NCBI GenBank assembly: GCA_965637545.1 | Contig: OZ281496.1 | Coordinates: forward strand, 13,888,001 to 13,952,000 | Direction of reading: 5' to 3' | Source of the DNA: Phallusia mammillata | Lineage: Eukaryota | Length of the DNA stretch: 64,000 nt | In this document: piece after piece, positions 25,154 to 64,000 of the stretch | Numbering within the stretch: position 1 is the stretch's first letter | Layout: each line of letters opens with the position of its first letter | Translations under genes and position numbers: made by a program | Notes under the pieces: generated by a model | The model's database searches: none | Told to the model about the DNA's origin: nothing | Seen by the model: only the letters and a program-made list of their open reading frames with translations

Positions 25154-25533
25154 CTGAAATACGCAAATAAAAACCCGCGTCTCAAGAAACCACAGCATTC
25201 GATGCTACATGGAAACGTGGGAAGTTTCATTTGCTGTAACTGTGTACCTCAAATGCAAGAAACTATATAACAACAAAAAGTCGAATGTCGGAAGATAATA
25301 AAAACGTTTTTACAGTGGCATTTTATTTCAAATTTGAAAAGGTCTTTGTGGTTTACAGTGTTTTTTTTCCTGAATAAAATTGGTGGGAATGGCTTTTGGA
25401 GTGGTAAAGGTTGGCGACCACTGATATATGTGCTTATTGTTTCAAGTACAGTATGAGCAGTGAGCTTAGCCTAAAAACTAAACAGAATCCTTCGCAGAAA
25501 GTTAATTGACAAGGATCAGAGTATCGTATAAAG

Positions 25534-26290: not shown

Positions 26291-26384
26291 GTATAAAGTG
26301 TTCTCATGTCGCCGTGCGTGTCACTTTCGAATTTTCGAAATTTATTTCATAATAGAAGTGTTTGGATCGCAAAAAAGGTTAACG

Positions 26385-26756
26385 CTGCGGTTCTCAAACT
26401 GGGGTCCGTGAGGCAATTTTGCGGTGACCGCGAAAAGGGTAATTCTATGTTCTGATTTGGCGTCATTTTGTGCAACTGAATAAGTTTAAATCGACTGTCT
26501 CCATTGTAAACAATAGGCTTTATTGCATGACAACTAACAAAAATGCAATTGTTCGCGCACAATTGCAATGTTTTTGTCTTGTCTGTGATGTCAGATTTGG
26601 ATCATTGTTATGCGCAATTTTGCATAACTAGCTAAAATCCTGCAATCGACTTTCGTTTTTCTGAAATATACATTTGAGCTTAAGGACCGCGAGCCCTCGA
26701 AATAATGGCAATTGGACCGTTTAGAAAAAAATAATGAAAACGTTTGAAAACCACTG
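26385..26756. mobile_element. hAT MITE
   Basis: CTGCGGTTCTCAAAC / GTTTGAAAACCACTG; TSD GGTTAACG / GGTTAAAG. Confidence 0.7.
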
Positions 26757-28099: not shown

Positions 28100-28159
28100 C
28101 TACTGTTGGATTACATAAGATGGTGGCTTATGAGTGCCACCACAAATAAATAAATAAAT
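28100..28159 (+). mobile_element. Possible LINE/SINE 3' tail
   Basis: Hairpin TGGTGGC-TTATGAGT-GCCACCA followed by (AAAT)4, typical of CR1/L2-type 3' ends. Confidence 0.35.
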
Positions 28160-29845: not shown

Positions 29846-30745
29846 ATGTGTGTTAGCTGGGACATGAATGAGCAATTACACCAAACTGGAAATTGGAAAC
29901 AACCTCATCGGTGTGATGTTCGTGAAACAGGATCTAGTCAAAAGGAAGTTTTGAACACACACATGTCTCACACTAAGAAAAAAATCCATCGGTGTGACGT
30001 ATGCGAAAAAGAATTTCGGCAAAGTGGAGTTTTGAAAAGACACATGTTGACTCATAGTAAAGAAAAAAACCATCGGTGTGATGTTTGTAAGAAAATGTTT
30101 AAGCTTGATGGTAATTTGAAAGCACACATGTTGATTCACACAAACGAAAAACCACATCGATGTAATATTTGTGATAAAAGATTTAGATATGGCTCAACTT
30201 TGAAATCACACATTTTGACTCACACTGAAGAAAAACCTCACGGATGCCATGTTTGTGAAAAACGGTTCCGTCAGGGGGGAACTTTGAAAACCCACATGTT
30301 GACTCACACAAAAGAGAAACCACATCGATGTGATGTTTGTGAGAAAAGATTTAGTCAAGCTGGAAGTTTGAAAACACACATGTTGACTCACACAAAAGAA
30401 AAACCGCATCGATGTGAAGTTTGTAAAAAAGCATTTGCACTCCGCGGACATGTAAAGTTACACATGCTGACTCATTCTAAAGAGAAGATTTATCAATGCG
30501 ATGTTTGCAAGAAAAGGTTTGGATTGTCTGGAACTTTGAAAGGACACATGTTGACTCACACACAACAGAAAACTCATCGATGTCGTGTCTGTGAAAAGAC
30601 ATTTCGATTTAAAGGAAATTTGAAAATACATATGCTAACGCATATGGAAGAGAAATTGCATGGATGTAATGTTTGTGCAAAGAGATTTAGACAGCTTGGA
30701 AGCCTAAAAAGACATATGTTGACTCATATGAAACAGGTGATGTAG
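29846..30745 (+). CDS. C2H2 zinc-finger protein, 9 intact fingers plus 1 degenerate finger
   Basis: 299-aa ORF of 28-aa repeats CxxC-x12-HxxxH with T(K/N/E)EKPH-type linkers. A likely upstream exon ends at 29352 (GTGAGT), with an acceptor at 29771. Confidence 0.9.
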   Translation: MCVSWDMNEQLHQTGNWKQPHRCDVRETGSSQKEVLNTHMSHTKKKIHRCDVCEKEFRQSGVLKRHMLTHSKEKNHRCDVCKKMFKLDGNLKAHMLIHTNEKPHRCNICDKRFRYGSTLKSHILTHTEEKPHGCHVCEKRFRQGGTLKTHMLTHTKEKPHRCDVCEKRFSQAGSLKTHMLTHTKEKPHRCEVCKKAFALRGHVKLHMLTHSKEKIYQCDVCKKRFGLSGTLKGHMLTHTQQKTHRCRVCEKTFRFKGNLKIHMLTHMEEKLHGCNVCAKRFRQLGSLKRHMLTHMKQVM

Positions 30746-33441: not shown

Positions 33442-33457
33442 AAATTGAAAAGTAAAT

Positions 33458-33987
33458 CTTTTCCAGATCACAAATACAAGCGTAAAATTCGGTGCCTTTC
33501 TAATGAACTTCTAATCTGTCAAGTCGACAAGGCAAAAAAGAAAACAAACATAGTGAGTAATGGTTGTTGCGGTAAGTTTCATGTTATTTCAATCTAACAA
33601 AACCGAAATCTGCAATCATACCTTTTTTTGTAAACCACGTTAGCCGAAGTTATAAACCTCACCTGTGACACGTTATGTTTATTCATGACTTCGTAGTACT
33701 TGAACCAGTTTTATGAGTCTTGACAAACACGAACTTGAGCATAGGCCTGGAACATTTTTTATTTTCTATTCTGATCACTGGAGTAATGTTTGTGTGTGGT
33801 TGAAGCATTGGCTACCAAAAACAAATAGGACCAATATAAGAGGCGATGCACAATTTAATTTTTTTGAAACACTTACCTTTACATCAATGACCGGTTTTAT
33901 CGGCGTAATAAGCAGAAAACATATTGAGGTCAATGACAGAAACACTGAAATAATAAAACCGATACGGCACAGCTCTAGTCTGTTCAT
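33458..33987 (-). pseudogene. Galactose-3-O-sulfotransferase (Gal3ST-like) 5' fragment
   Basis: Exon 33987-33877 MNRLELCRIGFIISVFLSLTSICFLLITP..DVK (signal anchor, GTAAGT donor). Exon 33811-33663 ..CSRPMLKFVFVKTHKTGSSTTKS* (5'-PSB motif, then a stop). Truncated by the Harbinger copy. Confidence 0.75.
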
Positions 33988-34169
33988 TGTGGTCCCGATG
34001 CTGTGCAAAAACCGGTCATATGTAAACTAAGTTAAGCATGCCAGAATATCTTCTGTGTGCTGAACTACTGTAGGACCAACCTTTTTACACGAGTTTGTGT
34101 TTGAAATGCATTTCGTCAACAGCAACAAGTTGTTTAAGTTTTATACTTTGCACAGTGTAATCAACAATA

Positions 34170-36583: not shown

Positions 36584-36871
36584 AGCGTTTGTCTTGTTTA
36601 AAAGGCTCATTTTTGGTTCTTAAAAGTTGTGATGTACTAACGAGTTTGTTTTGGCTGGGCAAGTCCAGAAATGCCAACCAAAATTTCGATTGTTTAATTG
36701 GATTTAATACAGTTCATTTTATGCTCAAACTTTGCAGCACAATGCTATTAAATCCAATTAAACAATCGAAATTTTGGTTGGCATTTCTGGACTTGCCCAG
36801 CCAAAACAAACTCGTTAGTACATCACAACTTTTAAGAACCAAAAATGAGCCTTTTAAACAAGACAAACGCT
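36584..36871. repeat. Perfect inverted repeat, 126-bp arms, 36-bp spacer
   Basis: 36584-36709 is the exact reverse complement of 36746-36871. Confidence 0.95.
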
Positions 36872-38534: not shown

Positions 38535-38734
38535 NNNNNNNNNNNNNNNNNNNNNNNNNNNNNNNNNNNNNNNNNNNNNNNNNNNNNNNNNNNNNNNNNN
38601 NNNNNNNNNNNNNNNNNNNNNNNNNNNNNNNNNNNNNNNNNNNNNNNNNNNNNNNNNNNNNNNNNNNNNNNNNNNNNNNNNNNNNNNNNNNNNNNNNNNN
38701 NNNNNNNNNNNNNNNNNNNNNNNNNNNNNNNNNN
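38535..38734. other. Assembly gap (200 N)
   Basis: Run of N. Confidence 1.
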
Positions 38735-38931
38735 TGTCTTTTCAAAACTCCACTTTGCCGAAATTCTTTTTCGCATACGTCACACCGATGGATTTTTTTC
38801 TTAGTGTGAGACATGTGTGTGTTCAAAACTTCCTTTTGACTAGATCCTGTTTCACGAACATCACACCGATGAGGTTGTTTCCAATTTCCAGTTTGGTGTA
38901 ATTGCTCATTCATGTCCCAGCTAACACACAT
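38735..38931 (-). CDS. 5' part of the second copy of the C2H2 zinc-finger gene, cut by the gap
   Basis: Identical N-terminal translation MCVSWDMNEQ...VLKR. Confidence 0.7.
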
Positions 38932-41900
38932 TCAAAGTAGTTGGTTCTCATACGTAGGTGCCAGCGCACTACCCGGCGGTTGCCTTTGCAATATTCTAGA
39001 TTACGCTGTAATAAATCAGGGCTGTTGAATTAACTTGCTTTGCCAAATAGTTTGCTGTTATAAGGTAATAAATCACAATCAAAAACGCATCACAACAGAC
39101 TAGAAAGTTTGAATGTAACAAATTACTCGACTACATCTAAATGTTATCACAAACTAATTTCACACAACCGGTTCAGAAACAACGAAAAAACTAATTAAAT
39201 CTTGCCTAGCGAGCAATTCACCAACGATTTTTTTTTGGTTTTCCTGCATCTGTCCACAGCTTATTTTTGTATTTGATTCCCACAAATAAATCGCTGTATG
39301 AACTAAAAAAACGTGAACTTTTAATAAACTGACAACAGAAGTAAATTCTGCTTGAGAAAAAAAAGTCACCCGAACAGCAGAGCTAGGTAAGAACAGAACA
39401 GTAGTCTGACAACGTTTTACTCACATACACATTATTGTGTTGCACCGCATGCTGCTGTTGTTGTTGATGTTGACCAACTACCACTACATGCATTCAAATA
39501 ATTAAAAACCGCTAGTAGTCGGCACATGTAACATCACTAGCTAATTTCTGCGCGAAACATCCCGAAACGCGTTGTGAATGTCAAACTGGGCCATGCGTGG
39601 CAGCGAAAATTAAGTGTGCAGTGAACCGTAGCTAAAAGAAAAAGGCAGTCGTGCATTGCGAGTGCGCAGACATCCGCGTTCGTTGCGCATCTGATTTCCC
39701 CACCGATATTGTTTTTCAGACTTGACGGTCAGATAAAAATCTTGCATGAAGTGTCACTCTGTATCATCGCAATATAACAGATTAAAATTTAAGTGTATGT
39801 CGCGTTTTTTGTTAAAACGTAGGTTTCTGGTGTGTTTGGTCGCAGTTTTAAAGTAGCATAAAAATGGTGTACTTTTTTCACTCATCGCGTCTTTGTTAAA
39901 ATACACAATAACGTGACTGTACCCTGTGTTTTAAATTTATACTTGTGGAGAGCTTAGGTTTCACAGTGCATCACATTTTTAAACAATATCTACTTCAGAG
40001 TTGTGTAAGGTTGCGGAACAAGCGAAGCGTGCTTTGACTTACAATAGCTAAAAAACAGTTGTTGTAATTCCTACATGTGCTGTGCTAGCGGCTTGTTTCA
40101 TTCACGTAAATCGTTTGGTACGGTTGTGTGCAGTTTCATACTGGAATGAAGTAACCAAATTTTGGTCAAATACTATTCTTATTTTGTTCTGGAAAAATCC
40201 GGAGAGTTGCTTTAAGCAAACTTATGTACTTAGAAACATAAAACCAGTTTATACTCGTAGTCTCTGACTATTTTACTACATGTTACGCATTTCCGATCAA
40301 CAGGCCTTGACAACAGCACACACTCTTATTTCGGAGTTTTCTGTTCCCCTTCGGAACGCCTTGCTACCTTTATTCGGGTCAGAATAGAGATTTCGAGTCG
40401 AAGCTGTTTCAGGAAATATGTACATGCTTGGCAATAAAAAAAAAGCGTAATAAACGTTCTGTCGCCCCCATTTTTCTTACTTGAGGTTTAACCGAACTCG
40501 TTCACAAAGGCAGTTTTAGTTTCTAAACTGCAACATCTTTAATGGTTTATCGTTCTCATTTTGATTTGTGTTTTCAATTCGATTGTCAGTTAATTTTTGT
40601 TTCGTTTTCAATTCATTTATTTATTTATTTGTGGTGGCACTCATAAGCCACCATCTTATGTAATCCAACAGTAGTCCAAAAACAGTTGTCGAGCATCTCC
40701 TTCGTTTTAACTAGATCGATGACGGGAGTCCGACATAGTGATCGCTATTCAAGATTGGCTTAGCTGAACGGGTAATTTCTGTGGCATATTTTTGTTTCTT
40801 TGTGCGTGACTAGGTAATCAGGGAAATAAAGTTAGTATCTATTATACTTGCTAAATTAATAGTTTCAGAGGAATGTTTTGAAGTCTACGTAATTACTGCG
40901 TCCCGCCTTCATTGCGAAAGAAACAGCGAATTAAACGCTTTTAACCTTGATTGACTAAGTAAGCAACTTTGACCTCAACAATCATGGGACAAAAATAACA
41001 CAAGGTAACTGGCATTTAAATTAAACCATAATCCAAAACCGCATTGTTTAGCAACTTGATATATGTTCCGTTGTTTTTCCTAATCATTGCAAACTTAGTA
41101 TACCCTGCTTGGATTAATGTATCATTGTAATTTTATCATGTTGAAAATAATAGATGCAGGTTTGGCAAATATTTTTTTAAGGTATGAGTTGTTTGAAAGG
41201 ATGTAAGGTTTTGGTGCGTTAGATATATTGAATGTGTCGTGGATAAATGGCCAATGGGTATTTTTTAATCAGCTGGTTGTTGTTGTTTTTCTATTTGTTG
41301 CAGATGATTCTTGTATTTAATCTCGTTAATAAAGTTTATGGCTTGGAATTGCAGTGTTGCTGGTCTGAAACGATGCTGAGTATAGTTGTTTTTTTTTGCA
41401 TAATAAGGTTGGTAGTACGTAGTTGTAAAAACGCAACCAGTCTTTTCAGGCAGTGATCGGCAACCACCGGGCCGCAGAAAACTTTCTCAAAGTTCACATT
41501 GAATCCAAGTTGTAATAATCGTCACTATTTGTGGTTTTAAAGGCAGGTCCGCGACAAAAATTTCCGTTTCAAACCGGTCCGCAGTGCATAAAAGGTTTGC
41601 GACCCCTGCTTGAAGGAATGTTAAAAAAAAGTTCAAATGATAATACAGTAAAACTTGTACTACTGGATCATTCAATGCCATTTAAGCGGTATTTATATTA
41701 CTTCTCACAAAACTGACTTATTCTGTTTTAACCAAGGATTTTATCGTCTATACTGTTTCAAAGTTGAAAAAAGCTAACAGTGTTTGGCAGTTTAGCCCTG
41801 CCTTGATGGTTGTAATCCATTATTGGAACTGTTGTTGTTTATTAAGTGGAAGGTTTTGCGGCCATCCAACAGCAGATTTTGATCAAGGTTTTACAGCACC

Positions 41901-44900
41901 TCGTTTGAAAACTTCGACTCTTTAGTAGTACAGTCAAACTTCGACACTATTCTAGGGTTGCCATATTTTATGATATACAATCCCTGACAAAATTTACCTC
42001 AGTTGCTTTAACCCAGTGGTTTTCAAACGTTTTCATTATTTTTTTCTAAACGGTCCAATTGCCATTATTTCGAGGGCTCGCGGTCCTTAAGCTCAAATGT
42101 ATATTTCAGAAAAACGAAAGTCGATTGCAGGATTTTAGCTAGTTATGCAAAATTGCGCATAACAATGATCCAAATCTGACATCACAGACAAGACAAAAAC
42201 ATTGCAATTGTGCGCGAACAATTGCATTTTTGTTAGTTGTCATGCAATAAAGCCTATTGTTTACAATGGAGACAGTCGATTTAAACTTATTCAGTTGCAC
42301 AAAATGACGCCAAATCAGAACATAGAATTACCCTTTTCGCGGTCACCGCAAAATTGCCTCACGGACCCCAGTTTGAGAACCGCAGCGTTAACCTTTTTTG
42401 CGATCCAAACACTTCTATTATGAAATAAATTTCGAAAATTCGAAAGTGACACGCACGGCGACATGAGAACACTTTATACCAGGGGCGGGCAACTTCTCCA
42501 GTCGGCGGGCCTGATATGGTAAAATGAAGTACTTGGCGGGCCGGATTCCCGAATCGATACATTAATAGCGTATTCATCCAGTGATTTAAAACGGATTTTT
42601 GACCACCTAAACCAGTGGTTCTCAAACTTTTTTATTGTCAGGGCCAAATGGTATTTTTTTAAGTGTGCAGGGAGCCGCAAAAAAAAACGAAACCTTGAGA
42701 AAATCACTAAAGATTATGACTTTAAAAGCTAAAATAGCAATCTTTGGTGGTTTTCTGAGGTCTGGTGCGAGCCGCAAAATAAGTAGTTGGGAGCCGCATG
42801 CGGCCCCGAAAACCGAGTGTGAGAACCACTGACCTAAACCAAATACAATCAAGAACGTCACAATTACAATACAGTCCAAACAATTCTAACTGATATAACA
42901 TAAAATTATTCACCACAGACTTAGATACTGCTGAAACACTAACTAGGCTACACGTGTGGAAACAAAGGAAACCGTGAAAGCAGGTCACATATAAGGTTGG
43001 CAGTTATGTCGTAACAATGGACGATATATGGTAACAACGGCGGGAAATTTTTTTGCTATTGGGTAGCGTTACTGTCCGTACAAATATAACTTGACGTAGT
43101 AAGCAAGTAGTGGGGGATTGCGGCCGACTGTGGCCGCGGGTCACTTTATCATGTAAGACCAGAAACTGTCTGCGGGCCGCTCAAAATCCCGTCGCGGGCC
43201 GGATCCGGCCCGCGGGCCGTATGTTGCCCGCCCCTGCTTTATACGATACTCTGATCCTTGTCAATTAACTTTCTGCGAAGGATTCTGTTTAGTTTTTAGG
43301 CTAAGCTCACTGCTCATACTGTACTTGAAACAATAAGCACATATATCAGTGGTCGCCAACCTTTACCACTCCAAAAGCCATTCCCACCAATTTTATTCAG
43401 GAAAAAAAACACTGTAAACCACAAAGACCTTTTCAAATTTGAAATAAAATGCCACTGTAAAAACGTTTTTATTATCTTCCGACATTCGACTTTTTGTTGT
43501 TATATAGTTTCTTGCATTTGAGGTACACAGTTACAGCAAATGAAACTTCCCACGTTTCCATGTAGCATCGAATGCTGTGGTTTCTTGAGACGCGGGTTTT
43601 TATTTGCGTATTTCAGGGGTGACACTAAAACGCGGAATGGGCGGGAGATGGCGGGACGTCGTGAAAACCGCTGAATATCGGGTTAAATTGCTGACGATTA
43701 GTGCTATTAAGTTTAAAGAGCTCTTCTGGCAAATGTGATTTTATTCCGACGTTTCGACGTCCTACAGGTCGTCTTTAAACTTGATACTATGCCTGGCAGC
43801 AATAGCTTATATAGTGCTATTAAGGTTGGGATAAGGTTTTATAATAGAAAATCATTAAAAATAATTCCCCCGGATACATTCCGCGACCGAGGGAAACATT
43901 CAGCTGCCGAGGTAGACTTCCCGCCCAAGCATTTTTTCTGAATGTCAGGAAACAGCTGAATAAGTTTTAGGCAGGGACATTTTTTGATTCACATACTTTT
44001 ATAAAACCTCAACCCAAACCTAATAGCACTAACCGTCAGCAATTTTCCCGATATTTAACGGTTTCCACGACGTCCCGCCCGTTCCACCCATTCAGCGTTT
44101 TAGTGTCACACTATTTAAGGCGTATTGTTAGACTAGTAACAAACAGGTATTGTTTGCTAGTAACAAACAGGTATTGTTACGCGCACACACACACTGCAAA
44201 ACGAAAAAGTAACCGTGTGCGTCAACCTGCGCGCCGCCAGTTTACCTCTTTACGTTTCATTGTATAGACGCGGTTGTAGTTTATCAAAAACTTTCTCTGT
44301 TGGTACATGGATTTCATAGTATAATTTTTGTTCTTAAATTCCTGATATAATTTTTGTTCTTAAATTCTTTTGATTGTTGCGTCACTCCTGCGCATGCGCG
44401 AACTGTAGCGTGGTTGATATCATTTCCAAGTTTGTGTGTCAGGGTTTGTCTGTTTCTGGCCGTGTCGATTGGTTAGCGATTGGAATTTATGTGAAAGCTG
44501 TCGTAGTTGTGTAAGCTAACCTAGTCTATACATTATTGCAGCTGTGGAATATAGTGGCAAACTGTAAAGATTAATTGGATGGATTTAACTGAAATTCGAT
44601 TGGCGATCTTGTGATTCTGTGCATTGCTGTCGTGGTTAAGCTTTCTTGCATATGCTTTTAACTTAAAGTGTTCGACTTCAATCTAACTTTAAATGTAAGT
44701 ATTACAGTTGTGACATCCGTCGCATGTAAACTGCACAGTCGTGTTGACTGCAAATACATATTGCTGGTGAGTGAATATGTCCTGTGACGTCATAATGCCT
44801 TATTCATGTGTGATATGTTATTTCAGCTTTGCCACTCACTGAGTTACCTCTGTGGGCCATTTCTCACAAGTAAAAAACTGCATTGCTACGTGACTGAGAT

Positions 44901-44906
44901 TGATTG

Positions 44907-45725
44907 TGTTACGAATAAAATTACAACTTTCTTTACTGCTCTGTTTTGCCACTTGCTTAGTTTGTTGTTTTGTCACTATGTGTTTTCCTTTTCTCGTAAT
45001 ATGATTTATTGGTTTATTGAACAGTTTTGTTATTGCTTTGGTTTGTTGGTTCGTCGACATACGTTCATACGCGATTCATTTTCATATGTTGCGCACATTA
45101 TTACCTTTGTTTATTCGTTTTCTGTCCCGGCACTATGTTTGATTGTTGCACTGTCACTATATGTTATTCATCTTTTCTGTTTGTGTTTCACCATTGGTGT
45201 TGTTTTTTTACGTAGGTTTCTCAACCTACCTTGCGTATATTTGTTTCTCATAACAGACTTTCATTTTGTTTTATTTCCTATTTCGTTTCGAATGCAACCC
45301 ACCGTGTTGGCTTGGCATTCCTGCGCGTGTCCCTAATTACAAACATCTTCGGGACTTTGCTTAATTTGCCCCAAGATCAACTGCTGACTTTTCCTCGTGG
45401 CTGGCTCCCTAACGTGAGGGCTGTGAAAATGTGATCGGGGAGACTTGGTTGGTCGGCCTTGGTAGAACGTGCTTCTTGGCTTGTGAGATCTTTTATCTAT
45501 TTGTCCGTTTTTACATCGTGTTTTTTAAGTGCTACGTTAGCCCGATTGTGTTGTCGAGAACCGTGCTTATTTTACTCCGCTTGTATAATAAGAACAAAGG
45601 ATATATTGCATATTTTGTTACTGTTTTGCAAAAAGTAAGAGTAGCGCGCGGTCTAGTTATTGGTTTTACCGGCTAGCCGTTAGAGCAGCGTCCTGAACCT
45701 TAGGCGCAGAAATAGTAGCGCTACA
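44907..45725 (+). mobile_element. Solo LTR of the Gypsy element at 20747-23864
   Basis: 819 bp, TG...CA, flanked by the ATTG TSD and the same flanks as the full element. Confidence 0.93.
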
Positions 45726-47630
45726 ATTGTATTCGCCGATTAAAGCATTTCATGGTGTCTGTCGGTGTTCTGGTTACCAACGATGCAGTAAGAACGGAGA
45801 TTGCAGAGGTGACCTGTTACGCTGTCCGAAGAAGCTGGCCACTTTTCTAAGGGGGCTGCGTTACAAATACGAAACATGTTTGTTTTAAAGTGGAGATTAA
45901 AAAATTAAACAAAAAACAGCATAAAAGAAGGTAAACAGTGGGTTCAGTTCAGAGTCTGTTCAGTAAAGTGGTACTGGAAACAGATCAAATTCAATTTTAA
46001 AATGCACAAAAATTAAATCTGAAAAGAAGTAACCTTAATAATTGTCACACAAAGGTAGTAGTGAAAATCAGTTGCATTTCAGGTGTTTGTAAATTTGGGA
46101 TCCTTTTGACGGGTATAGTTGCGCTTTTCCGCAATTTGACCTGGCAACACTAAACGATCTGTTGCCTGCCTCACGAGGTTCAGGACTTAAACGAAGCACA
46201 GAAAAACTAGCCTTGGAAAGTTACAAAAACTACAAAACCGTGCTGCAATTAACTTCTACATCTAAAGCTGACTTAAGTGAAGTAGGATAAAAAAAAGGTG
46301 TGAAAGTTAGCTTCTACATCAGTGATTCTAAAACCGTGTGCCGCGAAATATTTCCTATTTGAATATGCAAACATTTCTTGGGGTTTTATGTCTTCATGAC
46401 GAAATACTGGTGTGCATGTCAACGTTTTAAAGCATATAATTTTGTTATTAATAATGAAAAGCATCATTACCCACCACAACAAAGTTGAAAATTAACATTC
46501 CTTAAATAACTTTGGTTATTTTTACGTGCAAAGTGTGCCGCGGAAGGAAATTTTTGTTTTTTAATGTGCTGCATGCTTAAAAAGTTTGAGAACCACTCTT
46601 CTACGTGTAGAAAGTTGATGCTGTTATTTAAAAAAGCAGTTTAATACTAGGACATAGTTTGATGTATTAGGAAGTTTAAATGATGAACAAGTTATATCAA
46701 CCTGCAACCAAGATGGACCTGTATGCACTGTGCTTGGTAAGACTTACTTATTTTATGTTACCAATCAATTTTTCAAAGCCTTTTTTAACCTTACAGAGTT
46801 ATAATGTTTTAATTGTGTTTGATCATTTGTGTGTGCTTCTCTGCATTCTTTCCTTGTTTAATCACTTACAAGTACTTCTTCAGCAAACCAGTTGATGATT
46901 CTGTTTATGTATGCAAATGGAGTGATTGCGTTAATACTGTGACTCTATCTTGTCTGTTTTCAATACAAAAATTTGCGCTGTTTTTAAACTACTACTAGTG
47001 ATTTTATTACACAGTCAATGCACAGAAATGATAGAATATAGTTAAACCTCTGAAAATGTTTTCAATAAAGTAGTCAGTAACAGTTAATGCACCAGAACAA
47101 GTAAAATAGAAAGAAGATGTACATATCACAATTTGCAAAATTCATATCATCACAACCTTCAAGAAGTATTTTCAATGATAGTTATAAGTACTACTGGATT
47201 CTAAGTATCTTGTAAAGGAAGCATGTGCAGCCTGAGCCAGCATTACTCAAATCATTGGAGAATTGTCTGTTCCTTCAGTCAAAACATGGCCCTCCCAGCA
47301 GGCACCGCGCCGTCGAAATGAGGTTCGGACCAGACGTCGTTTCCACTAAGATTTTTTGGTCGAAAATGCAACAAAATTTAGGAAGTTCGACGTCTAACAA
47401 CGACGTCAGTTTTTCGACTTTTACTGACGTTGAAATCGCGTCTATTACCGACATCTTTTTGCTACACATATTAAGGTTGGGTAAACATAAATGCTATTCA
47501 CAGGATCTGTCCCTCTAATAGTAGGCATGTAAATATCCACGATCACTGAGTCAAAATTCTTTCAGTAAATGATTAATTAAGAAGCAAATGCTTCTGACTC
47601 AAAATCAGTAGACACTGTGTTGGTATATTC

Positions 47631-50064
47631 GAGATATATATTTCACCTATTCAGACATCGTCAGTCTCTAAAAACTGCAAACAACGAAGGTAAATTAAAA
47701 GAGAACAGATGTAAAAGCATACAAAATAAAATAGTAAAAAACTTAAAACACTAAAAGCATTTATGTCTAGTTTGGTTAACACAGTTTACACGAGCACAAA
47801 AGCGTAAAGTAATGAGGACGAAAAAACAGACGCAACGGCGGAAAAAAGGTGAGAGGCGTAAAACGGAAAAAGATAACGTCAACAGACACGCGCAAGATTA
47901 GAAATAACTCTGCGGATCAGCGCAATCTAGGTAAAACCATTTTTTGTATATTGATAGTGGCCTGTGTTATTTTAAGCCACTTGGTTTCACATGCATCCAG
48001 GTCTTTAGGTGCCGGCTGCTGTAGAAACGTTACGCTAAAACATTGTGTTATGTCGGGGTGTGTTGAAAAAACTGCTGTGTGTTTTGTGGCGTAGTGGTGC
48101 AATAATGCTGCATTGTCATTTTCCTCATTTACTTTGTGTTCTTTCCATGTGGATCTGTGATGTGTCCAACGGGTGCTAAACCGTTTTTTTGTTTGTCCAA
48201 TGTATTGCGCGCTACATATGTTGCAAGTAGCCGCATATATGCCGTAGCACTTGCAGTCCAGGTCTTGCTTCAATTCTAAAACTTGTCCGTCTGTTGTGAA
48301 CTTGCGCTGTTTATAAACAATGCTCTTATGACTACCATGATTGCCACACAAAGCACACTTTTCGCAAGGGCGCGACTGGCCGATGGGCTGTTTTGACGCA
48401 TGGGCCAAGCTTCTGTAATTAGTCAGGAGGTTCCCCAGGGTACTTGCTCTTTTATAAACTACAGTCGCGGAAAGTTGTAAGTCCCTTTTCTTAGCTGTTA
48501 ACTTCAAGGCCTGTGGGAAAGCTGTACCCCAAGCTATCCTTGGTTTGTGGGATCGACAAGTTGGTGACGCGAACCGTTTCATCCAAGTTTTCGAAACACT
48601 TAAACACTGTTCTGTAATGCTTTTTAGTACGGTTGGCGTCAAACAGTCGAGTAGTCGGTTCCACAAGGTTCCGGGCCCCACTGCAAAGCACTTCGCCAAT
48701 ACCAACCCAGCATATGTATATCCGCTGTTTAAAACTTACAAACTGCGAAAGGATGTCCTAAAGGAAGTGACAGCTTTAGAGATCCCGGTCAGACTAGTAC
48801 AAGCAGCAGGGAACACCTACCTCTCTCGCTGTACAATGTTTTTAGAATCTTTGCTTAAGCCAATTTGCATAGATTACTGTACTAAAGGTGTCAATGAATA
48901 CTGCAAGGACACTCAAGACTATCTTAAAGCATTGGTTGCGTGGCAGTTGGAAACTAGTCAGTTGCATCAAGAAACACCGGAACTATTTATTGCGGCTGCA
49001 GATGTTGTCGGACTTTATCCTAACATCCCTAGAGATTTGATAACGAAGTCTCTTTCTCGAGACCTTCGTCGTCACACTGCGATCCCGACCACGTCTCGTA
49101 AGTGCATTGTCGATTTTGTAATATTTACGATAAATAATGCAATTATACAGTACGGCGGAAAAGCATACAGACAGAAAGAGGGCATTGCCACCGGTGAGAA
49201 CCATTCTGTTTCCCTAGCCAACATAGCTATGCACTATGTTGTGGAGTCGGTCGCCCCAGCAATAAGAAAAGCTGAGATATTTAAAAGGTACATCGACGAT
49301 ATTCTGTGGATTTCGTTTGGACGGAAAGCCACCAAGGAAATAAAGTTAGCGTTGCAAGCTGCTTTTCACAAATCCGGTTTAAAGCTCACATTTCGGGAAA
49401 TTTCCAATAGAGATCGGAAAGGGAGTGTGGAATTTCTTGATGTTTTGCACTGCTATTTAAGTGTTACAAAGTTACATTTCGTCACCAAAGACCACGTGAA
49501 AGAAACAAGCAAACACCGTTGCTTCCTGTACGGAACTTCCCATCACCCTTCACATGTATTTCGGGGCATTGTGTTGGGTGAGGCCAGCAGATTAAGAAGG
49601 CTGAATGAGTTGGACAAAGACTATTTCACCAGTCTGGAACGACTCAGGGAAAAGTGCCAAAGATCTGCGTTTCCCGAACGCATTACAGAACAGTGTTTCG
49701 AAAACTTGGATGAAACGGTTCGCGTCACCAACTTGTCGATCCCGCAAACCAAGGATAGCTTGGGGTACAGCTTTCCCACAGGCCTTGAAGTTAACAGCTA
49801 AGAAAAGGGACTTACAACTTTCCGCGACTGTAGTTTATAAAAGAGCAAGTACCCTGGGGAACCTTCTGACTAATTACAGAAGCTTGGCCCATGCGTCAAA
49901 ACAGCCCGCCGGCCAGTCGCGCCCTTGCGAAAAGTGTGCTTTGTGTGGCAATCATGGTAGTCATAAGAGCATGGTTTATAAACAGCGCAAGTTCACAACA
50001 CACGGACAAGTTTTAGAATTGAAGCAAGACCTGGACTGCAAGTGCTACGGCATATATGCGGCTA
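47631..50064. mobile_element. Inverted second copy of the head-to-head Penelope-like element
   Basis: GIY-YIG ORF 47917-48705 (-) is intact. RT ORF 48545-49801 (+) has an 8-nt deletion frameshift near 49695 and continues in 49605-50222. Hammerhead at 47631-47668 (-). Confidence 0.92.
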
Positions 50065-52833
50065 TGTTGCCTGCCAGGGCATTTCATGCAAACTATGTTG
50101 AAATAGCAAAAGTGCTGGAACTTGTTTCACTCAATTTAGATTTAAAATGCAGTTTACAAAATGTTTTGAGTAATTTAACTCACCTGTATCTTATAAAATT
50201 AAGTATGATCAGCTTTTCCTGACATTGCCAACAGAAACAAAACTTGATTTTAGGGTGCTGAATCTTGCTCTTAGATAATTCATGGCGTACAGGCTGCACA
50301 ACTTATTATTCAGTTTTGTTCATATTTGTATGCATACATCTACTACAATGCCTATCAAATCACTATACTGAATGCCAGCAATATACATCCGTTGGCAAAG
50401 GTACTTCTCAGTTCCAAATTAAGCTCTGATATAATGTTTTAACTCGACTTTCGAATATAAAAGCGCTGTTCGGCATTTTCAAGCTTGCAATACATGTAAA
50501 CGGTTCACAACAAAAACATGGCCCAAAACATACATGGCCTAAACTAAGTTCAAACGTTTTTTACTTCCAAATATCACATGACCCAAATCCGGAAGGATGT
50601 AGCTATCTTGTTAGATTCATGTCTAAAATACTCAAAAAAGCACGCAAACCACTTATATTGCCACTTAGTAATGATTTATTTCAACACTAACTTAATAACG
50701 TATATCCAGTACACCTATACTAATACACATCACAGTCAATCTACGCATATTTATAGGTTATTACACACTCGAATACATGCGTCCTATTAATCTAGAAATC
50801 ATATCTGAAAAAATCCCTATACAAATGGCTAAAACAAAAATTATCGTCACTTTTCCACTCTCTCCCCATTGCCCGCAATGCATTTTTGGGGGTTATTTTT
50901 CAGCCGCCATTACGCTTCGCTTCAACCGTGACGGCCAGTAGCGCAATCCAGGGTTTATAGAGATCAGTGGTCAAAACAATTAAATGTGTGTTTTTCTCTG
51001 TAAAACGATTCATGCAATGTAAAGACGATAAGTTTTTACAGGCAATTTTATTGCCTTGCAACATGATGATATCTTAGGAATACGATAGTGTCCAGAATGT
51101 TTTGATCAAAGGTAATAATCTGATTATGTACAAGCAATCAAGTAAGAATATGTGCAAGCAATAGATTAAGATTACATGTACGACTGGTGTCATATAAAAT
51201 TAAACAATCAACAAGATTTTGTATGCTTTCTTCGAAATCAGTTGGTAAATAGTTAGCGCTGTACCCTCCTCCCTCACTGTTTTCTTACATGTCCACAGGG
51301 AATCCGGCAATTTTTTATGGTGTGTTCTTGCATAAAATTGTGTTAGTTTGTTAACCCCTCTACCATCGAGTTACTAAATAAAAATAGTAATATGTAAAGA
51401 AAGTCATATTCCGGATAACCTTGATTTCTGTTGTTTAAATTGTGCAAGGCAGTTGTGGACAAAGTTGTATGGTTGAAAGCTTTGATTGGTGAGTGACGAG
51501 TTGCTGTTGATGTGCAGTAAGCGTGACAAGCCCATAATGGAATGCTTACAGCGTCAGAAATGTTTACGTCTCAGATCGTACCATTTTTGCTTTGGGCATG
51601 TGGCTAAACGACCTAAACTATATTATGTTTAAAGATTACAAATGCAATGTATCCAAATTGTAATTTAAGTTAGTAAATGTTCGGTAAAGTATTCAGTTCT
51701 AATATAGTCAGTTGTGTATGAAACTTGGTGTCACATGTGATCCAGAAATTTTACCGCGCAACCTACAACGCTAATGGTAAATTTAGGCCCACAGATACAA
51801 ATCGCACATTTACGCCGAAGTCTAAATTAAACTACACCTAAAATTACAACACTGTATTAATGTAAACAAGCATACTTCAATAGAGAGGCCAAGCAAAAAT
51901 GTTTTTATTGTCATTATTGAAAAGATCAATTGTTAAGTTTCTAGTTTCCGCATACGCAATTTTGAACATTAATTTTGCTGGTTTTTGTGTTGTTTCATTT
52001 TGTTCGTGGACAATGGCCACATTTGTATCGGCATGTACTACTTGTGTTACATGCAAAGTATGCTAGCAAAAGCATTAAAACTGCTTCTAAACAAGAAGAG
52101 TTTGGACAGCATTCATCCTACCAACGTATTGCTTGTCTCGGGCATCTCTTTCCATATCGTCATGATGACGTTTTCGCTACATTTGAGTTCCCAAGGCAGA
52201 TCCTTATTTTGTAAACGCGACACTTTCGTTCCATAATCTTTCTCCGAAGACCTCATCCTTGGCAAACTCCCACAGTTCCTTTCGAGCACAGTCTTTAAAG
52301 TACTCTTCGCTCATTTGAGTAGCATCGTCGAATGAGCAGTTTTAATATGTTTGGGGAGCGTACGTCGGTTTTCCGAGTTGTTAATATTTTGTGTTGAATT
52401 TAACAAGCGCCTTTGAAATCCCAGGTAATCTCTTTCACAAAATCTCGATTGTTACAAATACTCAGTTAGAATTTTCTCAATGCCTTGGTTTAGTTTTGTG
52501 GCAATCGTTAACTTTCGCCAAGCTTATATTTTAAGTTGTCTCCCATTTATAATAATTTGCATTCAGTCACTAAATGCACATGGGTTGGGTATGCATTTAA
52601 GGACAAGACCCCTTACTCTTGTTTGATTAAGGTTGCAGCAATATCTGATGTGATATGAACAAGCTTTTGCAATTAGACCTGTCGAGTCGCTTCGTCTTCA
52701 TAGACAAAAAGTATAATTTGCTTCGGTGCATTTGATCTAATTTGTCTGTAAGCATCAAATTGTAAAGCACAAAAAACACATTCAAAAATTTAGTGCAGTC
52801 TGCTACTCCTAATGGCGTAGATACAGTTTAACT

Positions 52834-54579: not shown

Positions 54580-56336
54580 CAATTAGGGATTTTCGATTGT
54601 ACAAATTTTTGTTTAAATAGGCAAAATTGCTTACAACATCCCAATCGCAACACAGTAGATCCTAACACAAAAAAGATATTTTTCGGTTCAAAAGGTCCAA
54701 AGTTTAACGTTGAAATATTCTTGCAAAAAAACAAACAATTATCTTTGATGATTTGCATCAAATCTATTCGCAACTCTTTTAAAAGAAGTCGTTGTTGGTT
54801 ACATTTCAAGTTAGAACATGTTAAATAGAAGTTTGCATCTCAAACAAGCCTTTGAGTATGAGAGACTCCTCAAGATGTTCAAGCAGCATAACTAGATCCA
54901 TGTTTTTATCCAATTCTCGTATCTGTCTTTTAACTTCTTTGTCATCGTTCAACATCGAGTCAATTCCTAAATCATATGACTGAGAATTTCGGTATCTGTA
55001 CAAAGAAGGTTGGTTTCGTTTTAATCGAGTGTTTGTGACAGATCCTCGAGTCACTTCATCATTTTCAAACAATTTGTTCACCGCATTGGCACAAAACTGG
55101 CCTGAAATAAAAAGGAGCCGACGAATTGAGCAAGAATACTGATCGGATATTCCGCAGTCTGCAACTGCAAAATGTAAGCCATATGATGCAGAACGAAAAG
55201 GAAACGGAACAGTGTGATTTAAATACAATGTAACTGAGGCGAACCATTCAAACGTGACTGTTGGTACACCATTTTGTTAATTCGTAGTCCCTAAAAGCAG
55301 GCCTGCACAACACAAAACATTTCAAGTGCCGCAACGGGAAAAACTTTTGTCGCGCAAGCGCAAAAATTGGGAATGAAGTCATGCAATTCACATGCAAGTC
55401 CGTTCTTATAAATCGAAGCAGTACTAAAACATAGCATATTTTAGCGGCAGCATGGAGTAGGACTGCCCAAAAATAAACCTTTTCCAGATCACAAATGAAA
55501 GCGTAAAATTCTGTGCATTTCGAATGAACATCTAAAGTAAACTGTCAAGTCACAAAGACGGTACTACTAACGCTGAGCACAGGCTGGGGCCCGACCTGAG
55601 AACTTCTGGTAGGTGGTGCAACAAAGCATAGGCGTTTATGGTGCTGTTACAGCAATTTGGGTTTATGATAAGAATAATAGCTTAGTCAGCACCATAAACG
55701 CATATGCTCTTTTGCGCCACCTACCAGAAGTTCTCAGGTCTGGCCCCAGCCTATGCTCAGCGTTAGTAGTTCTACCGTCTTTGTGACTTGACAGTTTACT
55801 TTAGATGTTAGCCACAAAGACAATGCCAAAAAAAGGAAACAAACACAGTGAGTAGTGGTTGTTGCGATGAGTTTCATGTTATTTTAATCGAACAAAACCG
55901 AACTCTGCAATCATATCTTTTGTTGTAAACCACGTTATCCGAAGTTGCAAACCTTACCTGTGACACGTTATGTTTATTCATGAATTTGTGGAGCAACCAC
56001 TAGTAACCAGTGTTATGAGTCTTTACAAACACGAACTTGAGCATAGGCCCGGAACATTTTTTATTTTCCATTCTGATCACTGGAGTAATGTTTGCGTGTT
56101 GTTGAATAATTGGCTACCAAAAACAAACAGGACCATATAAGAGGCGATGCACAGTGATAAAGATAACTAAGATCGGTGTATAAACACAGCAGATTAGAAC
56201 AGATAATGAGATACGCAACACTTACCTTTACATCGATTACCGGTTTTATCGGTGTAATAAGCATAAAACATATTGCGGTCAATGATAGAAAAACTGAAAT
56301 AATAAAACCGTTACGACACAGCTCTAGTCTGTTCAT
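54580..56336 (-). pseudogene. Galactose-3-O-sulfotransferase (Gal3ST-like) pseudogene
   Basis: Exons 56336-56226 (signal anchor) and 56113-55958 (KFVFVKTHNTGY*). C-terminal block RNSQSYDLG..IRELDKNMDLVMLLEHLEESLILK at about 55000-54850 matches the Gal3ST RN..SFDLG..FDLV.I.E.FDESL.LL pattern. Confidence 0.75.
55527..55809. repeat. Fold-back insertion, about 120-bp imperfect arms
   Basis: 55527-55646 pairs with 55687-55809; 9-bp direct repeat CACAAAGAC at 55551 and 55813. Absent from the paralogue near 33525. Confidence 0.9.
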
Positions 56337-58463: not shown

Positions 58464-61400
58464 TAGACCGGCAGCCCAGCGACATTTGGGTATGCGAATT
58501 AGATACCAATATCTGACTGTACAAGTGTGTTGAGGGTCACCAGAGGTCAATGAAAATGGGTGTCTGCCGGGTACCACCCACTGGGTATTCCCCCGGGGGA
58601 CCCCGAAAGCTGCTAAAAAATGGGTACAAAACAAACTGGAGAAATACCACTTGATTCCACCGCCATGGGATGCCCATTTAGATCCTCATACTAATTCCAC
58701 AAACGACAGACATTTTTCCCGCCTCATTTGGCCCGCCAGACCCCCCACAAAGGGCCCAAAAAGGGGGGTAGCATAAACGAGTGAGATACCACTCGCAACA
58801 AATGCCAAACGAACAACTTGAGTTTATACAATGATAATTGGAATACGACAGACTACTGTTCCGCTGCATCGCTAGTATCAGACTCCCTAAAGTTCGACTG
58901 TGTCATTGACGTGACAATACTGTTCTGACGTCAAATCCATTGTGGTGCAATTACCTTGTGCTATGCGTGACTGCATGATGTGCATTATAGTCTTTGCTGC
59001 TTGCAGTTAGTAACGAAATATTGTATGTGGAATTAGACAGGTTGTTTTAAATAGATCAGTGTGATTATTTAATAATATTAGTGTGCAACTAAACCAGAAC
59101 GCACGTTATTTAATAAGAGCGTAATAAACATTAACATTCATATGACTTATTTTCCATAAATCGTGAGTTCTTTAGGTGTGTTAAGGCCCGAGTCGAAGAA
59201 CCTACTCTGCAGACAGCAAACTCTAGAAACAGAGAGTTACATTCAATGACCTTTAGCACTATTGTGGCATTTATTGAATCAGAGGTGATCATAAATCGAC
59301 AGGCAATGTTGATTTCGTCTTTGTTTGACTTATACAAGACAGAATATCTTGGATATGGAGGAGCAGAAGACACATTGGATAGCTACAAAATACAGACCTT
59401 AACAAAGAAAATAAAAGACAAGTTCGGGGATCAAATATCCATCTCGCTCTTTAATAATCAAAGAGGGAACTTCTTGTACAGCTCTGTTTTATCAGAGGAA
59501 GATGGAAAGGCATGTTTGCGAAATGAGAAAGATAAACACCAAACCACTATAAGAAGTGCAGCCCTTTACTTGAGAAATGAAATTCTGCGCATGCCGAAAT
59601 GGGAAACACCTAGCCCTACATCCATTGAATCTTTGAAGACCTGCTCACCAGATCTACCCAAGGATCTGCTGTTGTTTTTTACGACCTTGCTTTGTGGACT
59701 TCGCAAAACTACCGGTGACACTAACAAGGATATCATAGAAAGAAAGGTCACTGCAATGTCATCTGATGCCGTGTTCAATACATCCCGTGGTTCAGTACAT
59801 CCATGGAAGCACACTGTACTGCGGGTTTGGGCATGGGAACCCTTGCAGGATCCAAACTGATTCTTCGGATTTTGAACCGTCTTGGATATAGCCTGAGTTA
59901 CGACGAAGTAAAGTCGTTGGAAACAGAATTCGCGTTTTCAACTGAAGAGAACGATGCACCAGATGGTATTAAGTTGAAATCAGATCTTGGAACAGGACTT
60001 GCGTGGGATAACTACGATGTCAACATGGACACTTTGGATGGAAAAGATACTTTACATGCGACTGTCGGGATTTGCTACCAAAACATCACAACAGATGAAA
60101 CAGTACCATACAGACCGATCTCTATCAGAAGTGGGAGGAACAGGCGTTTGTTCGGTGGAAGAGAACGTGAAATTACACCAATGCACCAGCAGCTAAGTAA
60201 AGCAACTTTTCAACTGTCAGCATCAGATGACCAGCATGGAACTATAGCAACTACTCAACGCAAAACTGATTTCTTTTGGTTAATGAGGTTTCAAGTTATG
60301 CCACAGCCACTGTTTGCTGGTTTCTTCTCACAGTTTGTCCATGATGACCTACCTCAGCAGAAGATCTGTTACATGGATCCTATAGCTTTGCCTCCAACAA
60401 GAAATGATGTTGTTCGCGAAACTATGATGAGAACTATGAAGGTGGCCGTAAAAACAAATCAAGAATTTGCAATTGTTTCCTATGACCTAGCAGTTGCACT
60501 CAAGGCCTACTCTATTCAGTCACTTGAAGCTCCACGTTTTGATCGTCTGTTAATAATGCTGGGTAACTTTCACCTGGAGTTATCGTTTTACGGTGCCATG
60601 GGGACTTTCATCAATGAATCTGGTGCAGGATACCTTCTGACAGAAAGTGGAATATTGGCAGAGGGTTCACTCAATGGATTCATGCGAGGAAAATACTACA
60701 ACCGCTGCACCAGAATTCATGAAATTTTGGCTGTAACAATGGAAAGGAAACTTTACGAAAGTTTCCAATCAAGTCTCCCACTGGAAAAGCAAGAAGCAAT
60801 ATGCACATTCTTACAAGATGCCACAAGAGATCCAATTGTGACGGAAGAGTTCCTTGAAACAAGTCAGGTGTTCAAGGAGCACATGGAGCAATATGAGGAC
60901 TTCTTTACCTGGGTGATTAAGGGTGCTTTGGGGCCAACAGCTCAATACTGGCGTATTTATGTGTACATGATAAATCGTATACACCGAGATCTTATGCGAG
61001 CTTTGCGTACCAATGATGTAGAAGGATACATTGCAATTCTTCCTCAAGTTATTGATGTATTTTTTGGTCTTAATCGTCCAAACTATGCTCGCTGGGGAGT
61101 GCTGTATCTGGAAAAGCTTAAAACTTTGGACCAAAAGTTTCTTTCCGTTCTAAAAAAAGGAGCGTTTTCCATTCGACGGACATTGAAGGACTTCTCTCGA
61201 ACTGCGGTAGACTTGTCCCTTGAGCAAACTGTAAACAGGGATGCAGCATCACCCATGAAAGGGATAACTGGCTTCCATAATTCCACCAACGCCATACGCC
61301 GTTGGTGCATCACTTCTACCCAGCGAGGGATGTCAGTGACCGAGTTGAGACGGCTGACAGGACTTCTACCAGAAGAACAACCAAGAACACAGCTTCATTC

Positions 61401-64000
61401 AAGCAGGATTAAGAAGGATAACCAACAAATTGAAGCTCTCCTCAATGCAGTGACAGAAGCTTGTGATCCATTTTCTGCAGCAGCATCTACATCTTCAATG
61501 CTCTTGAATATCGCCACAGGGAAGGGGTCATCTGCGCAAACACAAGAATACCTCACAGATTCGTTAGAAGCTGGCCATAAGCTACACGAAAAATTCAGAA
61601 ATGAGTGTTCTGAAGATAGTTCAAGATTGTTAAAGCCAATCAAACGAAGAAAAGTGCAGAATTTCGCAAGTGAACACACAAAACCCAAGCAGAAAAGCAC
61701 TTCAAAGTTTACCTCGACAGCTAACAGTTTAAGGGATAGTTTCATCCGCATGATGGTAGTCATTTCCGAAAACACAAACTTTCATCTGCAACACGTCTTA
61801 ACTTACCCCATCACAGTCGTTCCACTGTCTATTGCTCAACCCGATGGTTCGCAGGTTAAGACCTCAAAAAGTAAGCTACTAAACAAGCTCGAGTCGATGC
61901 AAAAATGTGTACAAATTCTGCCTCATATTGAAGCAACATTAATCGACGGAGGACTGCTGCTCCACTCCTTCCTTTTAGCAATTGGCAAAATCTCCTCCTA
62001 CGGAAATTTAGCAAGGCGTCTGTTAGTTCACATTTGCTCCAGCAAAGGAAAGGAATTTCATGTCCTGTTCGACAAGTACATATCTTCATCCCTTAAGGAA
62101 AGTGAAAGAACATTACGTGGAGCCAATGATCAGTGAGCAGGCGCCTAAACAGAACTGCCAAAAGTTGCTGCAGAATGGCATATTTAAAGACCAATTGGCA
62201 AAATTTCTTCTACTAGAGTGGCAGAAAGATCAATATGGATCCATCTTAGACAGCAAGACGCTGATTTTATCTCACGGAGGGCGGTGTGTACGAATCACAT
62301 TCAACCAAATCAGTCGCAAGATGCATGTTGACTATCCGCATGACTTACAGGGCACACACGAGGAAGCAGACACCTTACTTGCGTTTCACGCTGCATATGT
62401 TCCTGGGAATGTGTTGGTCCGAACCAGTGACACTGATGTCATTGCGATACTTGTTGGCATGTTTGGTCGCGCTTTAATGGGTGGAAGCCAACTGAAGTCG
62501 ATAATAATAGATTGTGGTTCTGGAAACAAGCGCCGTTACATAGATATAAGCAGTGTGGTAAGGGCATTGGAGAACAAGCAACGTGGACTTTTTGCTGCGC
62601 TTCCAGGTCTGCATGCCTTTACAGGCTGTGATTTTACAGCAGCTTTCTACAAAAAAGGAAAAACGAAACCATACGACATCTTGGAAAATGACAGCCATGG
62701 ACAATTCATCAACTTCTTTTGCAACTTGTCGTCCAGGGACGAGCCATGCCGTCAGACAGCAGAAGAGTTTGTCTGCCACTTGTATGGCGTGAAACGGGTG
62801 AAAGATGTGAATAAGGCAAGGCACATAAAGCTTGTGCAAATGACAGGAAAAATAAGCAAGGTGATAATCATCCGTTATAAATAAGAGTTTAAATTGTTGA
62901 AAGTTTACGTACTTCGCTTAATTGTATATCTGTTTTTATGTATTGTGTACTCCTTAATTTGTGAAAAAGCAAATCTTGTTTCTCATTTTAGAAAAACCCA
63001 ATGGCCAACATTAAAAACGTTGACTGTGCCCTGTTACCACCTTGTTCCAAGACCCTTTGGATGAAGACGCAGCGTGCACATTATGTCAGCATCTCATCTG
63101 GGGAAATGCTGATAGTGCACAACCAGATCACGATTTGGATCCATTGGAATACGGATGGAAAAAAGAAAATGACCTTGATATGCCTGACTGGTTTCCTAAA
63201 TCAGTGTTGCCAGTTAATCTTTTTGAAGAGGTGACCGACAACAATGAAAACGACACCAATGAAAATGACACCAATGAAAACTACACCAATGAAAATGACA
63301 TAGGCTCTGGTCAAGAGTGGAGCGATGACTCCGACTGTGAATTTGAAATGTAGGCCTGTTGACATCATATCTTGTACATTTACAAAAATTTTCACTTTCT
63401 TTCATTTATCCCTTACAGCGTGCTTGATAAACTATGTTTCCGCTGGTATTTGAAATACCTAAGGTAGATTAGATTTGGAGAGGGGATGTATATTTAGTCG
63501 AACTTTAGATCTGTTACAGCCGAGGCAGTGTATATAGATGGTCTGTAACAGGTCGTTTGGGATTCCTTACAATGTTCTAGACCATTTGTCATTGGCTGCC
63601 TGTGGTATTTGCAATCTAAGTTAAGAGAGATGGGGGCGAGGGGGGGGGGGGTATCTAGTCGAACTTTAGGGAGTCTGATACTAGCGATGCGGTGGAACAG
63701 TAGTCTGTCGTATTCCAATTATCATTGTATAAACTCAACTTGTTCGTTTGGCATTAGTTGCGAGTGGTATCTCACTCGTTTATGCTACCCCCCTTTTTGG
63801 GCCCTTTGTGGGGGGTCTGGCGGGCCAAATGAGGCGGGAAAAATGTCTGTCGTTTGTGGAATTAGTATGAGGATCTAAATGGGCATCCCATGGCGGTGGA
63901 ATCAAGTGGTATTTCTCCAGTTTGTTTTGTACCCATTTTTTAGCAGCTTTCGGGGTCCCCCGGGGGAATACCCAGTGGGTGGTACCCGGCAGACACCCAT
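58464..64000 (+). mobile_element. Academ-type (AcademX) DNA transposon, right end beyond the window
   Basis: Long TIRs: 58556-58899 is the near-exact reverse complement of 63657-64000. The left end is inferred at TAGACCGG (58464) from the TAG terminus typical of Academ. Encodes a DDE + XPG-like protein. Confidence 0.8.
59246..63353 (+). pseudogene. Academ transposase with XPG/PIN-like nuclease domain, frameshifted
   Basis: Colinear ORFs 59246-59860, 59803-62136, 62060-62860, intron 62861-62991, then 62992-63353. Motifs AWDNYD..TLHAT, YDLAV, LGNFH, NYARW, DLSLEQTVN, IDGG, HEEADT, RTSDTDV, HAFTGCDFT..F..KGK, LPPC, DPLEYGW. Frameshifts near 59820, 62133 and 63090. Confidence 0.82.

Follow-up and report, generated by a model that had tools for sequence, protein, structure and literature searches.

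The inverted copy of host DNA at the right end of the insert at 55.5 kb in the window (the whole analysed stretch of 64,000 nucleotides from Phallusia mammillata, contig OZ281496.1) likely results from a known type of mutation at an ordinary MITE and not from a new mode of insertion. The MITE inserted in the ordinary way, and its right end likely gained a mirror of the left flank by a single fold-back template switch, which probably took place after the insertion and was not part of it. As the earlier note had proposed, the 33-bp mirror, which is exact, is specific to the locus, and starts at the base of a hairpin, is best explained by snap-back copying.

The geometry between positions 55527 and 55821 proved to be as that note had described it. 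The left host flank (55527–55559, forward strand), which served as the template of the mirror, is 33 bp long and ends in the left copy of a 9-bp TSD (55551–55559, forward strand), 9 bp being the TSD length of the MITE family. It is followed by a 217-bp copy (55560–55776) of a non-coding MITE family of about 220 bp, with GG...CC ends, inverted arms of about 88 bp, a spacer of about 40 nt, and a 3-nt deletion at the left end. The inverted copy of the left flank (55777–55809, reverse strand), a templated insertion, abuts the element, and sequence comparison revealed that its reverse complement matches 55527–55559 at 33 of 33 bases. An AGC junction of 3 nt (55810–55812, forward strand) separates it from the right copy of the TSD (55813–55821, forward strand), at which normal sequence resumes. 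The AGC junction is either filler or a copy of the three bases preceding the left TSD (55548–55550) with one change; an identity at 2 of 3 bases is too short to decide its origin. All three copies of the 9-mer at the locus are identical. The perfect inverted repeat extends to 37 nt if the first 4 bases of the element are included. The region 55520–55830 folds in silico as a single long hairpin (−137.6 kcal/mol as DNA, fold z-score of −26), and the mirror copy begins exactly at the base of this very stable structure. The longest abutting inverted match obtained by chance was 6 nt in 6000 shuffled flank pairs.

The left flank (55380–55559) was used as a query against the genome. Nine matches were found, all on contig C3, and the 33-mer was found in inverted orientation only at the 55.5-kb locus. 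The MITE insert was absent from all six aligned paralogous loci (L032 to L037). Two of these, L036 and L033, carry the target 9-mer once (with one change in L033) and continue straight into the right flank, as does the 55.5-kb locus after its right TSD. The site is 5 nt shorter in L032 and in L034, the latter being located in the window (33448–34166, forward strand) and displaying 80–83% identity to both flanks. L035 is deleted at the target site, and L037 aligns only upstream. The inverted copy includes 5 extra bases that are private to the 55.5-kb locus and missing from L032, L034, and L036. Thus, the mirror was copied from the 55.5-kb locus itself, and the 33 bp are locus-specific host DNA and not part of a TIR, in agreement with the initial reading of the sequence. 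An open reading frame some 300 bp away (54821–55276, reverse strand) has a weak match to galactose-3-O-sulfotransferases (Pfam PF06990, E value of 8e-06, 25.4 bits, under the cut-off of 27), and this host DNA probably represents an intron within a family of paralogous genes.

The locus was compared with contigs from five public short-read runs (X1, X2, X3, X8, and X9). The inner junction, between the element end and the inverted copy, was spanned by a contig covering 55712–55802, which showed 0 differences in three of four runs (X2, X8, and X9, with no cover in X3). The outer junction, comprising the inverted copy, AGC, the TSD, and the right flank, was present with 0 differences in a contig starting at 55780 in X1, X2, and X8. 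An outer-junction contig was not listed for X9 and X3, and X3 had no cover on the right side of the locus. In X2, the 37-nt repeat formed its own contig at a depth of 85, versus 30–47 for the neighboring contigs. In X9 (window positions 55211–55563 and 55780–55985), the left contig ran unbroken through the 37-nt repeat to 55563, and the inner junction was at single-copy depth though the outer-junction contig was unlisted, which could reflect filtering or another allele. Neither a joint skipping the inverted copy (the MITE followed by a plain TSD) nor an empty allele of the exact 55.5-kb locus was listed in the five runs, whose contigs drop rare variants.

A repeat search with the insert returned 83 matches from the best 40 of 399 candidates, the nearest other copy among these 40 being L002 (93%). 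The 22-nt terminal motif had 227 exact matches in the genome. For the family survey, 169 loci were fetched, including 130 with two recognisable ends and 39 one-ended loci, which were kept outside the junction counts; those examined were mostly truncated or interrupted by other elements. The sample is biased toward copies with an intact terminal motif, and a few of the 130 loci duplicate one insertion. An abutting 9-bp direct duplication was exact at 93 of the 130 two-ended loci and contained one mismatch at 14 and two mismatches at 5 (no more than two mismatches at 112 of 130). Exact duplications of 7, 8, 10, or 11 bp were found at none of them. Length was exactly 220 nt in 89 of the 126 oriented two-ended copies. 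The 217-bp insert at 55.5 kb has arms that are 88% complementary and no open reading frame of 110 residues or more, and a scan with Rfam returned only a chance match to a miRNA hairpin, below the gathering score. Short, non-coding, and bounded by TIRs, with many uniform copies, fixed ends, and a constant 9-bp TSD, the insert is a standard MITE with GG...CC ends.

Two further observations were made on the family. A longer related family shares its termini with the MITE, and elements of the two are often nested in each other's terminal repeats (L040, L048, L051, L078, and L081), which suggests a preference for insertion near their own ends. By eye, the innermost arm bases of four copies (L067, L088, L164, and L182) are perfectly complementary, unlike those of most copies, and this looks like arm-to-arm correction.

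Mutator (MULE) elements have 9-bp TSDs and long TIRs, and both features are found in the MITE. Merlin elements have 5'-GG termini and 8- or 9-bp TSDs, according to the accessible part of PMC8101967, and the GG termini and 9-bp TSD of the MITE match this description. The MITE, like the MITEs of these two superfamilies, is short and non-coding, with long TIRs, GG termini, and a 9-bp TSD, and fits Merlin or MULE. A Merlin family (L265 and L273) and a MULE (L282) that were delimited in the genome have TIR sequences other than those of the MITE. Ends of the MITE bounded none of 25 of the at least 28 matches to the Merlin domain PF12762 (IS1595-type transposase) inspected with 1.5-kb flanks, nor any of 13 regions of about 9.5 kb. 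For MULEs, no link was found in 25 of the at least 31 matches to PF10551 (1.5-kb flanks), nor in 7 regions of about 9.5 kb. A 7.5-kb span between two terminal motifs on contig C1 (L040) was considered as a candidate partner and rejected, as it is a MITE split by an LTR retrotransposon and further insertions. The search also delineated a young Merlin family (L263 to L275), with copies of 5–8 kb that are 97–100% alike, internal tandem repeats of about 383 bp, and an 8–9-bp TSD.

The earlier note had interpreted the inverted flank as a possible integration footprint of this type of insert and had suggested looking for a locus-specific inverted flank of 20–40 bp at each copy. The sister copies mostly have plain 9-bp TSDs. 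The abutting inverted flank was 0–3 nt at 127 of the 130 two-ended loci and 9, 33, and 111 nt at the other three, which include the discovery locus (L001, 33 nt); all three exceed the maximum for shuffled pairs. Since only 3 of 130 loci carry one, an inverted flank is not the integration footprint of the family, and this proposal was rejected. At L175 (identical to L260; G000:C7:16513106-16513547), an exact 111-nt mirror of the left flank, known from the assembly alone, is present without a recognisable right TSD. The left flank of L175 is part of a related element, in which the copy is nested beside another MITE. L021 has a TSD-sized inverted repeat of 9 nt in place of the direct TSD; the start of another repeat is similar to its right flank, and the inverted repeat may be a coincidence with that start. 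Apart from the discovery case, the survey thus comprises one clear case (L175) and one doubtful case (L021) among 129 loci. Odd junctions of other kinds were also present in the family, including L028, where terminal fragments form a patchwork and a 5-nt piece of inverted flank precedes a near-TSD, L044, in which an end is duplicated, and L029. Inverted flanks recur in the family as a rare accident with varied products. These products differ in length (33, 111, and 9 nt) and in outcome (TSD kept, right TSD and flank lost, or TSD-sized inversion), which fits an accident of repair or replication.

It had also been proposed that the same geometry recurs at 25.0 kb and probably at 4.9 kb, in association with Penelope-type hammerheads. 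The insert at 25.0 kb (24959–25058, forward strand) is a Penelope-like 3' stub with a hammerhead-like motif, flanked by a 13-bp TSD (24946–24958 and 25059–25071), and the inverted piece in front of it (24959–24998) is the reverse complement of the element's own tail of about 40 nt, which is common to many copies. A recurrence of the 55.5-kb geometry at 25.0 kb was therefore rejected. The family of this insert, for which the best 40 of 1068 candidates were scored, has a core that resembles a hammerhead by eye; Rfam returned no hammerhead match in the window, the 25.0-kb motif included. The Penelope-like copies have ragged 5' ends, mostly 12–14-bp TSDs, and an optional terminal tail of about 40 nt, which several copies carry inverted at the 5' end. 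No inverted host flank abutted any of 30 Penelope-like loci, some of which represent the same insertion; four matches of 11–12 nt were located 238–1195 nt upstream. The 43.7-kb copy represents the 25.0-kb insertion a second time, within a 7-kb inverted duplication. At 4.9 kb (4850–5172), an older inverted pair of Penelope-like ends has outer arms of about 34 nt (30 nt at 90%) and no TSD. A genome search with 5100–5200 returned only this sequence and also missed known relatives of the diverged part of the element, and the outer arms had no other match in 747 kb of fetched loci. These arms may derive either from flank mirrored long ago across a hairpin or from the tail that a diverged subfamily carries. 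The accessible portions of PMC8557442 and PMC11167929 describe Penelope-like elements with inverted copies at the 5' end and with a tail of 30–40 bp, and such an inverted pLTR with a tail accounts for the site at 25.0 kb as well as for the inner hairpin of the 4.9-kb structure. In these elements the inverted piece is element sequence, whereas at 55.5 kb it is host flank at an unrelated insert. The 55.5-kb insert does not align to the hammerhead-bearing repeat, has no Rfam hammerhead match, and lacks the features of Penelope-like elements mobilized by TPRT (a pLTR with a hammerhead, a tail, and variable 5' truncation); its proposed link to Penelope-type elements was not upheld.

Other features of the window were noted. 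A large inverted duplication (13424–30042 versus 38735–50970, with 99.7% identity in the 7.0-kb and 2.2-kb blocks and 95.9% in the 3.7-kb block) adjoins a stretch of 200 N (38535–38734) and corresponds to a recent duplication or to two haplotypes placed side by side. It contains two copies of a 1.8-kb element (14372–16216 and 48228–50064) with TIRs of about 390 nt starting with TAG; by eye, its ends are flanked by a 9-bp near-duplication with 2 mismatches. An element occupying 58556–64000 and extending beyond the window has inverted arms of at least 344 nt at 99% identity and overlapping open reading frames of 241, 789, and 285 residues; the two of these frames that were scanned had no Pfam match, and the element resembles an Academ-type DNA transposon. 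A hairpin at 36584–36871, with perfectly complementary arms of 126 nt, a 36-nt spacer, and no clear TSD, could be a young MITE or a further product of fold-back. Finally, degenerate tandem repeats with a unit of about 84 bp occupy 29896–30736.

The fold-back template switch that we favor for the 55.5-kb locus would proceed as follows. A nascent strand would run through the left flank, the TSD, and the element, and its 3' end, consisting of the right arm, would pair with its own left arm. With the left flank of the same strand as template, the polymerase would then add 33 nt to this end, and synthesis would rejoin at the right TSD with the 3-nt junction, for a switch-point order of 3-2-1-4. The locus displays the signature of this order, namely a reverse complement of upstream sequence, a start at an inverted repeat able to pair, and a return near the starting point. 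A difficulty is that, owing to the 3-nt gap close to the left end, no more than 4 terminal pairs beyond the bulge would be available for priming, unless the gap arose later. The switch could have been triggered when replication stalled at the hairpin or when a break at the element's right end was repaired, for instance by gap repair following excision. A return exactly to the TSD with a 3-nt junction, together with the right-side loss in L175, leans toward break repair, although not decisively.

The arms of the 55.5-kb copy contain 6 mismatches and a 3-nt gap in about 87 pairs, whereas the median among 78 distinct copies of 220 nt is 3 mismatches, and the 33-nt extension is perfect. Omitting one mismatch that is family-wide, about 0.07 changes per pair gave, by hand arithmetic, a value of about 0.09 for the occurrence of none in 33 pairs. 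This weakly suggests that the mirror is younger than the insertion; a faster mutation of the MITE arms than of the AT-rich flank, which is possible, would weaken the argument further. Analysis of arm homogenisation identified 14 rare changes mirrored in both arms, 12 of which came from a mis-registered copy (L097); the two that were left compare with a shuffle mean of 0.48 and with 164 unmirrored changes, so that homogenisation across the family was not clear from this count. The 55.5-kb copy contains one change mirrored in both arms.

Several other origins of the mirror were considered. A hairpin that is continuous across the element and its flank could suggest that the 33 bp belong to the true TIR of a longer subfamily. 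The inverted 33-mer is unique in the genome search, the paralogs reveal host DNA, and none of the other copies shares this end; this reading has a negligible probability and was rejected. An assembly or long-read hairpin artefact could be invoked on the basis of X9, which has no outer-junction contig and a left contig continuous to 55563. Against it, both junctions are present without differences in contigs of public runs (three runs for each), the 37-mer is at about double depth in X2, and the supporting samples span three studies, though one of them may be the source of the assembly. This explanation, which would require one artefact common to all these runs, is extremely improbable and was also rejected. 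Penelope-like ends occur with inverted structures at three places in the window (4.9, 25.0, and 43.7 kb), and these, together with the unexplained outer arms at 4.9 kb, evoke a TPRT footprint left by a Penelope-type reverse transcriptase on a hairpin RNA. The fixed ends and the 9-bp TSD of the 55.5-kb insert, a TIR element, contrast with the ragged ends and longer TSDs of the Penelope-like copies, and neither the 25.0-kb piece, which is element tail, nor the 30 Penelope-like loci provide an abutting host mirror. A TPRT origin is extremely improbable, and the family survey counts as its refutation at this locus.

The mirror could also have been made at the moment of insertion, by a rare aberrant filling of the 9-nt gaps left by cut-and-paste strand transfer. 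This would account for the exact conservation of the right TSD with three identical copies of the 9-mer, for the lack of an intermediate allele in the five runs, and for the odd junctions at L028, L044, and L029. Standard DDE strand transfer joins the 3' end of the element directly to the target, and the presence of 36 extra bases between the element end and the TSD requires a further break. In addition, the extension seems, on weak evidence, younger than the arms, and the loss of the right TSD in L175 is unlike a footprint. An origin at insertion is therefore improbable. A bolder version of the fold-back reading is that breaks made by a transposase at MITE ends are repaired in about 1–2% of copies by fold-back across the element, mirroring the host flank to the far end, so that the mirror would be a recurrent footprint triggered by the element. 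We regard this extension as tentative and rather unlikely. If it were true, hairpins would be lengthened with host DNA, host sequence could enter long double-stranded RNA or extended TIRs, and the process might act on other hairpin-shaped inserts of the genome, such as that at 4.9 kb.

The 55.5-kb locus thus provides a clear case, found in nature, of a known mutation type affecting the end of a MITE, and it cautions that an inverted flank combined with a TSD need not imply a new integration chemistry. Surveys of template switches tend to mask repeats. MITE families provide hundreds of like hairpins in which the TSD marks the original ends, and can serve as a test set for the growth of hairpins into their flanks and for a possible trigger by transposase breaks. 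The present survey adds a first count within one such family (one clear and one doubtful further case in 129). A literature search, conducted outside most subscription journals and supplements, returned no direct description of MITEs mirroring host flank.

Comparison with known systems, based on the accessible portions of the cited papers, places the 55.5-kb event closest to short-range template switches of the 3-2-1-4 type (the Ripley model and the four-point model; PMC7954356; PMC8604942; PMC10710096), in which the reverse complement of upstream sequence is inserted and a perfect inverted repeat is made or lengthened. This order is one of the two commonest short-range types in ape genomes and gives a single inverted repeat, and an intra-strand route is possible for switches in which point 2 precedes point 1 (PMC7954356). 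Arms of inverted repeats are lengthened by intramolecular switching (PMC8604942). The polymorphism set of PMC10710096 excluded events overlapping repeats, leaving transposon ends unexamined there. The 55.5-kb locus shares with these switches an imperfect inverted repeat as seed and a possible intra-strand route. It differs from the usual events in that the seed is a pair of MITE arms of about 88 bp, the jump is about 217 nt, and the switch points coincide with the element end and the TSD.

The event also resembles MMBIR and fold-back priming, since a short insertion is inverted relative to a nearby template. The accessible text of PMC8421209 describes templated insertions that are inverted and drawn from a template close by, and that of PMC10164571 reports that inverted repeats fold back in single-stranded DNA near breaks and lead to inverted duplications. 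L175, with 111 nt copied and its right side lost, fits such priming at breaks well. At 55.5 kb, the template is about 220 nt away, beyond the 100-bp limit of PMC8421209, and, unlike in MMBIR, priming would involve long TIR homology instead of microhomology, with local resolution of the event. Finally, copies of Galileo with extended TIRs (PMC4168063, in its accessible part) also have the TIRs of a DNA transposon lengthened with non-TIR sequence. The extended TIRs of Galileo lie between identical TSDs, whereas the arm added at 55.5 kb copies DNA located outside the left TSD.
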